DNA of 20,564 bases from Candidatus Heimdallarchaeota archaeon (GTDB taxonomy: Archaea > Asgardarchaeota > Heimdallarchaeia > Heimdallarchaeales > Kariarchaeaceae): NCBI GenBank assembly GCA_015523565.1, contig WAKA01000125.1, positions 1 to 20,564 on the forward strand, written 5' to 3'. A model generated the notes under the pieces. The model saw nothing but the letters and a program-made list of their open reading frames with translations. It ran no database searches and was not told where the DNA came from. Shown here piece by piece: positions 11,246-16,512 of this stretch (the stretch's first letter is position 1; every line of letters starts with the position of its first letter). Both the position numbers and the translations under genes were made by a program.

Positions 11246-12508
11246 TCAGGGTTTTCTGGATTTTGCCATTGCTTTGGCTTTCATTTCCAACGGATCAATG
11301 AATGACATTGTAAGGTAGGGTCCAAACCATTCATGATATCCCAAGGCAACAATATCTCCCGTGTTTATGAATTTTGGCTTGTCCATTTCCGCTCTCACCC
11401 ATACCCCGCTTTGTTTGCTGAGAATATAGACACCGTTTGTATTTGGCTTGTATTCTTCAATCCTGTATCGAACCTGACCACCAATCTCTTTTGCAGTCAC
11501 TTTTGCATGTTGTCTCGAAATTGCTGGGCTTGCAGGATAGGGATCGTCAATCACTAGATCACAGGATGAAGACCTTCCAATAATGAATTCCTCCTTGGTA
11601 AGGTCTTTTGTGATCTCAAATTTGCTTCCATTGACAATGAAATACGGGAATTGGGGAACTTCAAGCTTCTGTCCCGTCAACACCTTGTAAAAATCATTTG
11701 CCGTCTGGAAACGCTTGTTTATGTCTGGATGGGTTGCCTTCATGACAATCTTTGCTGTCTCCGTTGAGATATCAGATCTCTTGAAATGGGGATTCAACCC
11801 CTTTGGACTTTTGTCCCCCAATGTCGGATGAATTCCTGTCAACAGGAAATAAAGAATTGCCCCGACAGCATAGATTTCACCTGCAACACTCCAGAGGAAT
11901 TGATTTGATCCTGTGACTTCAGGGGGCGCATAACCAGGAGTTGCAAAAGTCATGCTTGCCTGCTGGAGTTGACGGATGTCCACTCCCTTGTTGTACTGCC
12001 TTGCCAATCCAAAATCGATCAAGGTCACTCTTTGATTGGATGGATTGTAAAATACGTTTTGGGGCTTTAAATCCCTATGCAGTACACCTTTGCGATGCAT
12101 GACATCGACCGCCTGAAGAATTTTCCCAGTGATCTCTTTTGCCTCTTCCTCTTCAAGACCACTGCCCATGGCATATTTTTCTAGGTCTGAACCCTCCAAA
12201 AATTCAAGAACCAGAACAGGGGTTTGGGGTATCTCAAAAAAATCTATGCAACGAACCACATAATCAGTATCAAAAAGTCTCAAGACATCTGCTTCAAATT
12301 TCAACCTTTGTATCCTGTCTTTGTCATAGCTGTCATTTTGCAGCAAAACAGTCTTCACAATCGCTTTCTGTCCGTTCTGGGTCTTGCCTATGTAGGTTTG
12401 CCCCATTCCACCCTCATCAAGGAACTTCTCAATCACATATTCGGCACCTGAAGTCGGATTAGATATTTTTTCACCATCCGAGAAAATGGTGGGTGAGTGC
12501 AGGCTCAT
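11246..12508 (-). CDS. Soluble Hanks-type Ser/Thr protein kinase with C-terminal FHA domain
   Basis: EGGMG Gly-loop, AIVK, alphaC Glu (FEA), HRDLKPQN, DFG, TPGYAPPE. FHA motifs IGR...ISRQH...TNG...GD. No TM. ATGA overlap with the PP2C gene, SD GGAGG. Confidence 0.95.
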   Translation of the reverse strand: MSLHSPTIFSDGEKISNPTSGAEYVIEKFLDEGGMGQTYIGKTQNGQKAIVKTVLLQNDSYDKDRIQRLKFEADVLRLFDTDYVVRCIDFFEIPQTPVLVLEFLEGSDLEKYAMGSGLEEEEAKEITGKILQAVDVMHRKGVLHRDLKPQNVFYNPSNQRVTLIDFGLARQYNKGVDIRQLQQASMTFATPGYAPPEVTGSNQFLWSVAGEIYAVGAILYFLLTGIHPTLGDKSPKGLNPHFKRSDISTETAKIVMKATHPDINKRFQTANDFYKVLTGQKLEVPQFPYFIVNGSKFEITKDLTKEEFIIGRSSSCDLVIDDPYPASPAISRQHAKVTAKEIGGQVRYRIEEYKPNTNGVYILSKQSGVWVRAEMDKPKFINTGDIVALGYHEWFGPYLTMSFIDPLEMKAKAMAKSRKP

Positions 12509-14262
12509 TTATTGTCTCCTCCATTTTGGTTGAATTCGGGAATTACATAAATCATCGAGATGTTGTCCCGTCCACCCATTTTATTTGCCAATGCAGTCAG
12601 TTCCTCAATTGTTTTCTGACCATCTTCATAATGCTTGACCATCACAGCCCCTATTGAAAGAATAGGATCATCCAACATGTCAGGAAGCCCATCACAAGTT
12701 ACTAGAAGCCGGTCATTCTCCTCAAGTTCATGAATCTCTATTGTCGGGTTGGGGTTGGGCTTTCCAAGATATTCTGTGATATACCCATCAGCTGTCGAAT
12801 CGTCTTTGGTCATCAATTTCAATTCCCAGTCCTTGACATTCCTTATATTGAATTTGTAAATCTGACTGTCCCCCAGATTGGCAATGACTGCATGTTTGCC
12901 TGCAATTATCGCCATCGTCACTGTTGAGCTTGCCTTTGCCCCTAAGGTTTTTTGGACATTTTTGATGACCAAATTGTTTGCCGTCTGTATCCAGTTGTTC
13001 ACAACAGAGGCTATGGAATTTTTGAGAATTGCATCCCTCTGCTGAAGGAAATAATTGACTGCAAGTCTTCCAATGGTTTCTGCCCCTACCTTTGCGGCAA
13101 CTTCCCCGTAGGGCACCCCACCAACCCCATCACAGACAATGAAAATCCCCACTTTGGTGGGTTGGCTTTCATACCACGCATGGAGAGTCACTGCAACTAT
13201 TGCGTCCTCATCCTTGTCCCTTCTCCGACCAATGTCTGAATTCGAGTAATAGGTTATGTTTCTGATTGCTGACGGACCAAACCACCGTGTTGGGGAATAT
13301 TTCTGTTTGTATTCCTCTTTTGAAAGAGGAATTATCTCAAAGACCAAATCAACACTTGGAGGGATTGTCACAACGTTTTCCCCTTCAGCCAAGGGTTTTC
13401 GATCCCTGAACATGACGGTTTGGATCCCATTTGAATTTTTGATCCTTATAGTTGCATCCTCTGTTGCATTGTTCAGGAAAATGGTTTGATGTTCAAGGAA
13501 TATGGAGAATTTAGGGAAGTATTCATAATTGTCAGGGTCGGAAAGGGACTCAATTGTTTGATTCATCAGAAATCTTTTGTCGACAAATTGTCTAGGTTTT
13601 TGTTGGGAAAGGATAATTTGACGATGAAATTCATTGTCCGCAAAGATTTTAATCAAGAATATTTCAGCAGGTTTGGTTTCTGGAGTTTGGGGTGATAATT
13701 GTCCTGTACCACTTGCCTCCATTTTCTTTTGAACATCGGATTTCGCCGATATACCAACGGTTTTTTCCTCAATGGAAGCACTGGCACTAGTAATTTTTTC
13801 TTCTATTTTGGAAATTGTTTCTTCTTTTTTCTCAATATCAATAGTTGTCTCCTTCCCTAATTCATGAAGGATCCTTTTATCTTCTAATTCAGTAGAGGTT
13901 GTTTCCATTCCTATTTCTGTTGATGTTGCATTCTTATCTGTTTCAGAGGGCATTGATTCCTTAGCCATTTTAACACTGGATATTTCCTCTTTCATTTCCT
14001 CATTGGTTTGCCCTTTTTCTTGTTCAAGAGATGCTTGATTGCTTTTTTCTATTTCTAAGTTTTCTTCCTGTTTCATTTCCTCATTGGTTTGCCCTTTCTC
14101 TAATTCAAGAGATGCTTGATTGCTTTTTTCCATGTTTCCAGTTTCTATTTCTAGGTTTTCTTCCTGTTCATCCTCCACCAAAACTTCATGGAAGCAGTTA
14201 GAACACTTTTTCTCACCACTGTTTAATTCATTTCCACAATTTGTACAAAATTGGCCATCCAT
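12505..14262 (-). CDS. PP2C/PPM-family phosphatase with N-terminal Zn ribbon, long acidic linker and a middle beta-rich domain
   Basis: Start re-set to ATG 14262 (SD GAGGT, 10 bp after the vWA stop). CTNC..CSNC ribbon. PP2C motifs RDKDED, VCDGVGG, ANLGDS, TCDGL, GGRDNIS. Confidence 0.92.
   Translation of the reverse strand: MDGQFCTNCGNELNSGEKKCSNCFHEVLVEDEQEENLEIETGNMEKSNQASLELEKGQTNEEMKQEENLEIEKSNQASLEQEKGQTNEEMKEEISSVKMAKESMPSETDKNATSTEIGMETTSTELEDKRILHELGKETTIDIEKKEETISKIEEKITSASASIEEKTVGISAKSDVQKKMEASGTGQLSPQTPETKPAEIFLIKIFADNEFHRQIILSQQKPRQFVDKRFLMNQTIESLSDPDNYEYFPKFSIFLEHQTIFLNNATEDATIRIKNSNGIQTVMFRDRKPLAEGENVVTIPPSVDLVFEIIPLSKEEYKQKYSPTRWFGPSAIRNITYYSNSDIGRRRDKDEDAIVAVTLHAWYESQPTKVGIFIVCDGVGGVPYGEVAAKVGAETIGRLAVNYFLQQRDAILKNSIASVVNNWIQTANNLVIKNVQKTLGAKASSTVTMAIIAGKHAVIANLGDSQIYKFNIRNVKDWELKLMTKDDSTADGYITEYLGKPNPNPTIEIHELEENDRLLVTCDGLPDMLDDPILSIGAVMVKHYEDGQKTIEELTALANKMGGRDNISMIYVIPEFNQNGGDNK
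13990..14168 (-). repeat. Direct duplication (about 81 bp / 27 aa) in the PP2C acidic linker
   Basis: QEENLEIE(TGNME)KSNQASLE(L/Q)EKGQTNEEMK occurs twice, with near-identical DNA. Confidence 0.9.
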
Positions 14263-14272
14263 GGAACATACC

Positions 14273-15526: not shown

Positions 15527-15627
15527 CAAGATATAGTATAAAGTTAAGTAAAAAATTTTTCCACGATTAATTATAAAATTTAACAATTGAACCAATACTA
15601 TATTGCAGAAAGTTTGAAATTCAGCTA

Positions 15628-16512
15628 TTAAAGCCTGAAAATCAGTGGTAAACTTCTTACGTTTCCCAATATCACCACATCACCATCACGAACCTGCTCA
15701 GGGACATTTGCTTGGAGTTTCCTTCCATTCAACGTGGTACCGTTAGTTGATCCCAAGTCTTTTACAAAGTATTGTCCATTTTTCTCATAAACTTCCAAAT
15801 GCACTCCAGAGATTGGTGCTACTGCATTCCCTCGATAATATTTAATTAAACTGTTTCTTCCTATTTTTATTGGTTTTGAACCGATTTTTATTACATTCCG
15901 TCGAATTTGAATACTGGGTCTTTTGATTTGGTCAATAGGTACTGTTTGTTCTAGTCTAGTCCCATCCAAGTCACAGAAAAGAGCAAAGCTCTCTTTGCTT
16001 TTCAGCCCACATCGAGGGCAGTATGGAGATGCGGTTTCTGCACTAGGAATTGGTTCTAATACTAATTCCTCATCAGGTTGACTTTCAACACCTATTTTTT
16101 GTTGCTGTGGAGAAACTGCTGCAAAACCAGAAGATCCAGATTGCGAAGACATATTTGAAGCATCTGAAGCACTTGCATTTGACAAGGTCGATGGAAGGGG
16201 TGTTTCACATGCAGGACATTTGCCATAAGAAAAATCAGTAATGGCAAAATTACAATTTGGACAATTATATTCCTCTTGAGGCATGTTTTCCTCTTTTTCA
16301 TGAATTGGCATATAGCAGACTAAACAAAAATCTTCATCACCATCAGTGACATTATTGCAATGAGGACAATTGATTGGGTTCTGATATTTTGGCTGATGTG
16401 AAACAACAGGGGGTGATGATTGTTGCTTGGGCTGATTTAAGGGAGATCCACATGAAGAACAAAACAAATCATCTTCTTCATAATTCCCACAAATTTCACA
16501 TTTTGTACCCAT
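15628..16512 (-). CDS. Four Zn-ribbons plus C-terminal FHA domain (ArnA-like)
   Basis: Knuckle pairs CEIC/CSSC, CPHC/CLVC, CPNC/CPAC and CPRC/CDLD, separated by Q/S/P-rich linkers. FHA motifs IKIGR...ISGVH...DLGSTNGT...DGDVVILG. Confidence 0.92.
   Translation of the reverse strand: MGTKCEICGNYEEDDLFCSSCGSPLNQPKQQSSPPVVSHQPKYQNPINCPHCNNVTDGDEDFCLVCYMPIHEKEENMPQEEYNCPNCNFAITDFSYGKCPACETPLPSTLSNASASDASNMSSQSGSSGFAAVSPQQQKIGVESQPDEELVLEPIPSAETASPYCPRCGLKSKESFALFCDLDGTRLEQTVPIDQIKRPSIQIRRNVIKIGSKPIKIGRNSLIKYYRGNAVAPISGVHLEVYEKNGQYFVKDLGSTNGTTLNGRKLQANVPEQVRDGDVVILGNVRSLPLIFRL

Follow-up and report, generated by a model that had tools for sequence, protein, structure and literature searches.

To our knowledge, ArnA/ArnB is the only archaeal switch combining an FHA protein with a vWA protein that has been studied so far, and the kinases and the phosphatase that belong to it are encoded at scattered genomic sites. 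We report here on a cassette of four genes, encoding a zinc-ribbon–FHA protein (reader), a vWA protein (scaffold), a zinc-ribbon–PP2C phosphatase (eraser) and a Hanks kinase fused to an FHA domain (writer), which is carried by a 20,564-nt stretch of DNA from Candidatus Heimdallarchaeota archaeon (assembly GCA_015523565.1, contig WAKA01000125.1, positions 1 to 20,564). This whole stretch is called the window hereafter. From its protein domains, predicted folds and distribution, the cassette is probably a closed phosphothreonine switch of the ArnA/ArnB type, with writer and eraser genes of its own.

In Sulfolobus acidocaldarius, ArnA, a zinc-finger–FHA protein, and ArnB, a vWA protein, are encoded by adjacent genes (Saci_1210/1211; PDB 5A8I, 5A8J and 8S05; PMC6509490, PMC12852372). 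ArnB consists of a split β-sandwich, a vWA domain and a C-terminal helical bundle (PMC12852372). The pair itself and the link of ArnB to the Sec23/24 fold, which appears in the title of PDB entry 8S05, have already been published, as has the fact that structural relatives exist in Heimdallarchaeota (PMC12852372). The cassette shares with this system the adjacency of a zinc-finger–FHA gene and a vWA gene. However, it includes a kinase and a phosphatase gene, whereas those of ArnC, ArnD and PP2A are unlinked in Sulfolobus, and its phosphatase belongs to the PP2C/PPM family instead of the PPP family. In addition, the kinase and, according to its predicted structure, the phosphatase each contain an FHA fold, four ribbons take the place of the one zinc finger in the reader, and the FHA gene comes before the vWA gene, with a spacer of ~110 nt between them.

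The same four components are also found in one operon of a bacterium, Deinococcus radiodurans (DRA0331-DRA0334, encoding a vWA protein, a Ser/Thr protein kinase, an FHA protein and a KI-FHA–PP2C protein; bioRxiv 10.64898/2026.01.23.701218). Judging from the published description, the kinase of this operon has three C-terminal transmembrane helices and no FHA domain, its phosphatase has no zinc ribbon, and its gene order differs from that of the window. An earlier note on this DNA, made from the sequence alone, had suggested that the locus may be undescribed. This is too strong, since cassettes of this kind recur in Asgard archaea and in bacteria and the bacterial operon has been partly characterized (bioRxiv 10.64898/2026.01.23.701218); a literature search found no paper on the Asgard cassettes. 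Finally, the TerY-P system (YegL-PphC-YegI in Escherichia coli; PMC11090510) resembles the locus in having vWA, PP2C and Ser/Thr kinase genes in that order, along with zinc ribbons.

Domain content of the four proteins

The cassette genes, along with two regions within them that are discussed below, are located as follows (window positions):

15628..16512, minus strand: zinc-ribbon–FHA reader gene, 294 aa (Pfam DZR, E 2e-7; FHA, E 1e-12)
14273..15517, minus strand: vWA scaffold or hub gene, 414 aa (Pfam VWA, E 1e-20)
14276..14530, minus strand: residues 330-414 of the vWA protein, a Thr-rich helical bundle at its C-terminus and putative phospho-acceptor and FHA-docking surface
12505..14262, minus strand: zinc-ribbon–PP2C eraser gene, 585 aa (Pfam Zn_Ribbon_1, weak; PP2C_2, E 1e-12)
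13321..13665, minus strand: cryptic FHA-fold domain of the PP2C protein (residues ~200-314), predicted by fold comparison
11246..12508, minus strand: Hanks kinase–FHA writer gene, 420 aa (Pfam Pkinase, E 5e-41, 141 bits; FHA, E 2e-7)

As the earlier note had proposed, the four genes are co-oriented; they are open reading frames of the minus strand, arranged in the order FHA reader, vWA, PP2C and kinase. The other two features of the layout that it had reported were confirmed as well: 10 nt separate the vWA stop codon (TGA) from the PP2C start codon (ATG, position 14262), and the kinase ATG overlaps the PP2C stop codon by 4 nt (ATGA). A second open ATG of the PP2C gene is located upstream, at 14325. 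The spacer between the FHA and vWA genes is AT-rich and, on this basis, could be the site of a second promoter. None of the four translations, inspected by eye, contains a long hydrophobic stretch, and this reading is the basis for calling the proteins soluble, as the earlier note did.

The vWA protein is ArnB-like rather than TerY-like. A comparison with 177,635 PDB sequences ranked ArnB, as present in the ArnAB complex, first (8S05_A, E 1e-23) and ArnE/vWA2 second (5A8J, 5e-13), ahead of any other vWA protein. An exhaustive HMMER search retrieved 735 homologs at E 1e-10 or better, many of the top ones being 370-430 aa long and aligned across nearly their full length. A word-based search returned the protein itself and one congener only, and a scan of genome contigs a single, unrelated bacterial vWA protein. 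In a family alignment (A1) of 38 of the 735 HMMER-found proteins, the MIDAS (metal ion-dependent adhesion site) residues of the DVSGS (D61, S63 and S65), GGT (T129) and TDG (D156) motifs are invariant or nearly so. The AlphaFold2 model built from this alignment (predicted local distance difference test score, pLDDT, 93.5; predicted TM-score 0.91) shows strands 7-35 joining a β-sandwich completed by residues 230-327, the vWA domain (55-226) being inserted between them, followed by a C-terminal four-helix bundle at 339-410 (helices 339-356, 360-379, 383-393 and 400-410). The top Foldseek matches of the model, in a TM-score range of 0.60-0.77, are 4FX5, a vWA protein from Catenulispora (0.77), 8S05_A (0.71/0.76), 8S05_B and 5A8J, with ITIH and Sec23/24 ranking below them. 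Together, the best PDB match and the three-domain model support the claim of the earlier note that the zinc-ribbon–FHA and vWA proteins are an ArnA/ArnB-like pair. Nine Thr residues occur in the 85 residues of the bundle region (10.6%, as compared to 4.9% in the remaining protein), and all nine are kept in the sole close ortholog, which is encoded by a genome of the same genus (G001) and is 59% identical overall. By comparison with ArnB (PMC6509490, PMC12852372), this bundle would be a candidate phosphorylation site and FHA-docking surface.

The model also shares with the Sec23/Sec24 core of COPII the vWA "trunk", the β-sandwich and the helical domain, to which the zinc finger can be added at the level of the locus (Foldseek E 1e-13 to 1e-16, TMq, the TM-score relative to the query, 0.55-0.61). 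In contrast to Sec23/Sec24, the gelsolin domain is missing and the zinc ribbon is part of another protein; sequence identity is 10-13%.

The reader is the ArnA-like partner of the vWA protein. It contains three canonical four-Cys zinc ribbons (Cys 5/8/18/21, 49/52/63/66 and 84/87/99/102), then a Ser-rich linker and, at residues 165-184, a ribbon variant (CPRC-x12-CDLD) in which the last Cys is replaced by Asp. The description of this protein as four zinc ribbons followed by an FHA domain thus holds for three ribbons and the FHA domain, the fourth being a CxxC...CxxD variant. In the C-terminal FHA domain (~205-294), the phosphate-binding residues GR218, S235xxH238 and N257G are all present; G, R, H, N, G and D are the invariants of the FHA alignment.

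In the kinase, the domain spanning residues ~15-290 has K52 in AIVK, HRDLKPQN144, DFG165 and APPE194, and its G-loop (DEGGMG) is substituted at the first Gly alone. Its C-terminal FHA domain (~292-395) contains GR311, S331xxH334 and N358G. Similar kinase–FHA fusions recur in the loci L014, L077 and L018. The best NCBIfam match is of the Stk1 type, below cutoff.

The PP2C protein has the most complex architecture of the four. An N-terminal four-Cys zinc ribbon (C6/C9/C20/C23) precedes an acidic linker of ~170 aa, rich in Ser, Thr and Glu, which contains six Txx[D/E] motifs and a near-exact tandem repeat of ~27 residues (EENLEIE..KSNQASLE.EKGQTNEEMK; window 13700-14180, minus strand). In the congener ortholog, the linker is shorter and of different sequence, with the same Ser/Thr/Glu/Asp-rich make-up. 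The catalytic domain (~345-585) retains all metal-binding motifs (RRRDKDED, DGVGG, GDS, CDGL and GGRDN) and has a shortened flap. It aligns with the bacterial PP2Cs tPphA, PstP and STP with VIA-align Z scores of 20-24, and the protein matches the Stp1-type PP2C of NCBIfam (E 4e-28, below cutoff); a word-based homolog search found the protein itself only. With these readings, the core catalytic and MIDAS motifs, stated to be intact in the earlier note, are confirmed in all proteins concerned, and so are the phosphothreonine-binding motifs of the reader and the kinase.

Between the linker and the catalytic domain are ~115 residues which share 28% identity with the congener ortholog. An AlphaFold2 model of residues 180-585 (overall pLDDT 70.5) predicts there an all-β domain (model residues 22-134, pLDDT 65-93, resting on two sequences). 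When compared with 48,161 PDB representatives using VIA-align, this domain (model residues 21-135) matched FHA domains only, with Z scores of 8.7-10.0 over 89-109 aligned residues: Chk2 (10.0), APLF (9.9), aprataxin (9.3), MDC1, EmbR and PNK (9.2 each) and Rv0020c (8.7), the FHA domain of NIPP1 being also among the matches. The canonical GR, SxxH and NG residues are absent and, at the sequence level, Pfam gave no match at E up to 10 and hhalign against the FHA alignment a probability of 1%. According to this model, the PP2C protein holds a cryptic, degenerate FHA-fold domain directly before a PP2C domain with an intact set of active-site motifs. The zinc-ribbon–PP2C assignment of the earlier note was therefore correct for the ribbon and the phosphatase, with a domain list that the structure comparison completes. 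A degenerate FHA domain before PP2C has precedents in plant KAPP and in Deinococcus DRA0334, which share with the cassette phosphatase the succession of an N-terminal disordered region, a degenerate FHA domain and a catalytic domain (bioRxiv 10.64898/2026.01.23.701218). Reader, writer and, by its modeled structure, eraser each have an FHA fold.

These architectures bear on the proposal that the vWA, PP2C and kinase genes are a TerY-P-type triad, i.e. a stress or anti-phage defense switch to which the FHA protein would be an add-on. In its favor, the gene order equals that of E. coli yegL-pphC-yegI, the kinase domain matches kinase models of PADLOC, which are generic ones, and the distribution is patchy, some congeners being devoid of the cassette. 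However, E. coli YegL is a single domain of 219 aa which aligns to the window protein around the MIDAS only (28% identity over 125 residues), so that the three-domain ArnB-like vWA protein departs from the stand-alone TerY type of ~220 aa. Likewise, the kinase C-terminus that defines TerY-P is a zinc ribbon or, in the defense version, an oligonucleotide/oligosaccharide-binding (OB) fold (PMC11090510), whereas here the ribbons are on the FHA and PP2C proteins and the kinase ends in an FHA domain. The TerY-P assignment made in the earlier note was thus not borne out. No ter genes, nucleases or defense neighbors were seen near the cassette, the PADLOC matches of the neighboring genes being coiled-coil, winged helix-turn-helix (wHTH) and ATP-binding cassette (ABC) look-alikes only; the remark that the locus lacks an obvious toxic effector agrees with this, as no effector-like gene was seen. 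The cassette also has no match in phage records, one weak match to a plasmid, of cyanobacterial origin, and a base composition typical of its genome. Overall, a defense function of this type is very improbable. The other cassette proteins (vWA, PP2C and FHA) were unmatched in PADLOC-DB 2.0.0, and so were the E. coli YegL, PphC and YegI controls (E up to 1e-5); because of this control, the negatives are uninformative for E. coli-type TerY-P triads, and PADLOC was rejected as a test for them.

Occurrence of the cassette in its genome and among Asgard archaea

The source genome is a metagenome-assembled genome (MAG) of 3.57 Mb in 233 contigs, 90% complete. A whole-genome family search found two Pfam matches to FHA, both in the cassette, one to PP2C_2, in the cassette, and one full-length match to Pkinase, again in the cassette, together with two short and weak ones. 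The earlier note had called the system self-contained, and the counts make this stronger than was claimed, the cassette comprising all FHA domains, the sole PP2C and the sole full Hanks kinase found. Given the contig number and completeness of the MAG, these "only copy" statements hold for its assembled part.

Such counts can be read in two ways. The kinase and the PP2C could be general-purpose Ser/Thr signaling enzymes acting on many cellular substrates, the vWA protein and the reader being just one client or adaptor pair. Since no other full Hanks kinase or PP2C was found, any cellular phosphothreonine signaling would have to pass through the cassette enzymes, and their best NCBIfam matches are of the Stp1 and Stk1 types. 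In bacteria, Stp1/Stk1-type pairs are pleiotropic. Against such a broad role, the only FHA readers of the genome are in the cassette, so no other FHA-type phosphothreonine reader is encoded; moreover, as described below, the four components travel together, in varying order, across distant lineages, and two congeners (G002 and G003) do without the cassette enzymes, on which therefore no core process depends. We consider general-purpose signaling unlikely, and favor the dedicated ArnA/ArnB-type switch.

In the class, FHA domains were found in 4 of 83 genomes and relatives of the PP2C protein in 3 of 83. Across a phylum-wide sample, 29 of 400 Asgard genomes have FHA domains, with a concentration in one family (11 of 14). 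The cassette is present in two of the four genus members: in G001, a 2.8-kb contig carries the FHA, vWA and PP2C genes and breaks off within the last of them, whereas in G002 and G003, the latter 93% complete in 10 contigs, no FHA domain, PP2C relative or related kinase was found. Fetched loci were scanned with hidden Markov models built from sequences of this analysis; at least three other Asgard families, as well as metagenome contigs, proved to have the same four components, arranged in different orders. An ArnB-like vWA protein, an FHA protein with or without zinc ribbons, a Hanks kinase and a PP2C are thus encoded within a few kb in G278, G108/G109, G134, G137 and G142 (the last three being single-contig genomes) and on the metagenome contigs L014 and L018. 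In G278, which belongs to another Asgard family, the locus is on contig C174 (L017/L077), the same contig as in NCBI GCA_964505645.1. Synteny elsewhere, which the earlier note had put forward as a check, is thereby established for the four components. The other Asgard cassettes mostly have the order vWA-FHA-kinase-PP2C, as opposed to FHA-vWA-PP2C-kinase in the window, and their PP2Cs are 245-430 aa long, without the zinc ribbon, linker and FHA-fold extension of the window protein.

FHA genes of other genomes are found in further contexts. In G016, of the same order (contig C319; L042, 414-3301), a trypsin-like protease with a C-terminal FHA domain (532 aa) adjoins a Hanks kinase (422 aa). In G070 (contig C136; L041, 86-3251), overlapping or abutting genes encode an AAA_2 (Cdc48/Clp-type) ATPase, a Fer4_12/radical-SAM-like protein and an FHA–zinc-ribbon protein, this being the sole FHA context found in that genome.

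In a quick maximum-likelihood tree of vWA proteins, those of the window and of G001 form a long-branched pair. This pair does not belong to the clade of FHA-less ArnB-like proteins from the same class, which is well supported and follows taxonomy. The nearest relatives of the window protein in this tree, with weak support, are P0054 and P0105, each adjoining a gene for a double-zinc-ribbon–FHA protein. These data argue for an accessory nature of the cassette, apart from the vertical line of ArnB-like proteins, and the patchy spread shows cassettes of this kind to be gained and lost as units. Recent horizontal transfer has no support from composition: the GC content of the cassette (0.38-0.43) gave no signal relative to the genome mean (0.386, standard deviation 0.033), and 82% of random genome windows show a larger tetranucleotide distance than it does. 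Carriage by a plasmid or a phage was likewise set aside, given the database matches described above.

The FHA-less clade itself, made of three-domain ArnB-like vWA proteins (7727-9754 of L078 in G003, L079, L080 and L081-L085), is vertically inherited. In eight of nine loci, a conserved partner gene on the same strand is located directly upstream, encoding a 150-200-aa protein that contains two DNA-binding domains of the winged-helix type; one genus additionally has, just before it, a gene for a wHTH-ARPP-1 protein of ~445 aa. This winged-helix partner may be the route of ArnB-like proteins to transcription in lineages without FHA domains. G003 has such a wHTH-linked ArnB-like gene and no cassette, and the ortholog was not found in the cassette-bearing source genome (G000) or in G001; G002 has neither. 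The distribution within the genus thus looks complementary, a pattern that may be an assembly effect because all these MAGs are incomplete (82-93%).

Genes flanking the cassette

Two further features frame the cassette:

11225..11245, minus strand: T-rich tract (CTTTTTC ... ATTTTAC; T5) directly after the kinase stop codon, read from the sequence
16603-20562, minus strand: gene of a giant surface protein with TSP3 repeats, at least 1319 aa, running off the window

The T-rich tract may mark the end of the transcription unit. Some 300-400 nt beyond it begins the next gene, the first of two ABC exporter genes that follow the cassette on the same strand. Such proximity raises the possibility that the cassette regulates this exporter pair through phosphorylation-dependent FHA docking, as with Rv1747 and PknF of Mycobacterium. 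A cassette of G016, a genome of the same order, gives some substance to this idea, since it holds an ABC transporter fused to two FHA domains: on contig C218 (L040, 516-7372), genes encode a vWA protein of 415 aa, the FHA-FHA-ABC fusion of 881 aa, a Hanks kinase, a 175-aa protein and a PP2C. This fusion recalls Rv1747, which is associated with PknF. However, the exporters of the window are devoid of FHA domains and differ in ABC class from the G016 fusion, and the intergenic gap and the T-rich tract separate the two units. In addition, the ABC pair is kept in three congeners without the cassette upstream, including G001, where no cassette gene is found in the 10 kb of contig upstream of the pair. 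A conserved linkage between cassette and ABC genes was therefore rejected, and we give the regulation of this exporter pair only a slim chance. The exporter gene at 7012-9024 contains, within its nucleotide-binding domain, a periodic insert rich in Met and Lys (MKGKQMAGMKGKPMTEMKSRMTEMKGR...; window 7714-7944, minus strand), which is absent from the partner subunit.

On the other side, the TSP3 gene ends 90 nt upstream of the cassette. The protein has bacterial-type TSP3 calcium-binding repeats, one transmembrane helix and a cytoplasmic tail of ~200 aa, very acidic and Thr-containing, in which a EEETIEPEEEEEED unit is duplicated and DFWDD motifs are repeated at the end. Six Txx[D/E] motifs in this tail would be possible targets of the kinase, with the FHA proteins and the MIDAS of the vWA protein assembling there in an inside-out control of the surface protein; MIDAS sites are known to bind acidic side chains (PMC6509490), which would suit such a tail. 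If this were true, intracellular phosphorylation would be coupled to adhesion outside the cell, in an integrin-adaptor-like arrangement in an Asgard archaeon. In contrast to this reading, adjacency is seen in the source genome alone, cassettes elsewhere have no such neighbor, and the three congeners yielded no ortholog of the tail, the TSP3 protein examined in G001 ending in a different tail, short and basic. A conserved linkage between cassette and TSP3 gene was rejected on these grounds, and of all the explanations considered, control of the surface protein is the least probable.

The proposed switch and its significance

In the favored ArnA/ArnB-type switch, the Hanks kinase would phosphorylate Thr residues, the likeliest sites being in the vWA helical bundle, in the Txx[D/E]-rich linker of the PP2C protein, or in both. 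The FHA domain of the reader, as the counterpart of ArnA, would then engage in tight binding of the phosphorylated vWA protein, to which a zinc ribbon of the reader would already be tethered more weakly and independently of phosphorylation, as seen in the crystal structure of ArnAB. The PP2C would strip the phosphates and reset the state, and the FHA folds of kinase and phosphatase would recruit both enzymes to the same phospho-hub. With a canonical FHA domain on the kinase and a degenerate FHA fold on the phosphatase, reader, writer and eraser would be expected to compete for one hub, and such competition for docking could give rise to a sharp or feedback-controlled switch. We infer all interactions, phosphorylation steps and the output of this scheme from work on ArnAB (PMC6509490, PMC12852372) and from the domain content of the cassette.

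Several points weigh against this scheme. The interactions and phosphorylation among the cassette proteins are inferred ones, and the kinase may have many substrates outside the cassette. The enzyme side is without precedent in ArnA/ArnB, since the Sulfolobus kinases and PPP-type phosphatase are unlinked and belong to other families. The FHA domain of the reader matches the ArnA chains 5a8i and 8s05_C weakly (E 0.002 among PDB sequences) and scores better with other FHA domains. The Pfam model ArnB_C (PF18677/IPR040929) is, as a further difference from the Sulfolobus system, not matched by the C-terminal 185 residues of the vWA protein at E up to 10, nor by anything in the genome at E up to 1, in a search whose control matched Sulfolobus acidocaldarius. 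Among ArnB-like proteins, the Thr content of the bundle is 8.4% in FHA-linked members and 7.3% in FHA-less ones, a difference that does not discriminate, and Thr-richness of the bundle was accordingly rejected as a marker of FHA-linked proteins. The 233 contigs and 90% completeness of the MAG also bear on the "only copy" counts. Last, archaellin (PF01917) was not found in this 90%-complete genome, in a search whose control matched four archaellated archaea; for this reason, archaellum repression cannot apply as such, and motility, one of the outputs suggested in the earlier note, is unlikely. Complex prediction for the reader and vWA protein gave ipSAE values of 0.00 and 0.01, below the mark, and was counted neither way.

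The finding opens no new category of system. What is new is the presence of an FHA fold on all three partners, in the eraser as predicted from its model, and the zinc-ribbon, linker and FHA-fold extension of the PP2C protein, as well as the closed status of the cassette, whose parts are the only copies found in the genome, and the evidence for its being an accessory unit, separate from the vertically inherited ArnB-like proteins. Because of its position apart from the vertically inherited clade of the class, the vWA protein makes a poor candidate for an ancestor of eukaryotic proteins and, despite sharing the Sec23/24 core fold, says little about eukaryote origins. The cassette represents a minimal closed version of the ArnA/ArnB-type switch, with a single kinase, phosphatase, reader and scaffold, these being the only such parts detected in its genome. 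That each of the three mobile partners bears an FHA fold suggests a testable arrangement, with competition among them for one phospho-hub, and makes this cassette a convenient four-protein system for reconstitution.

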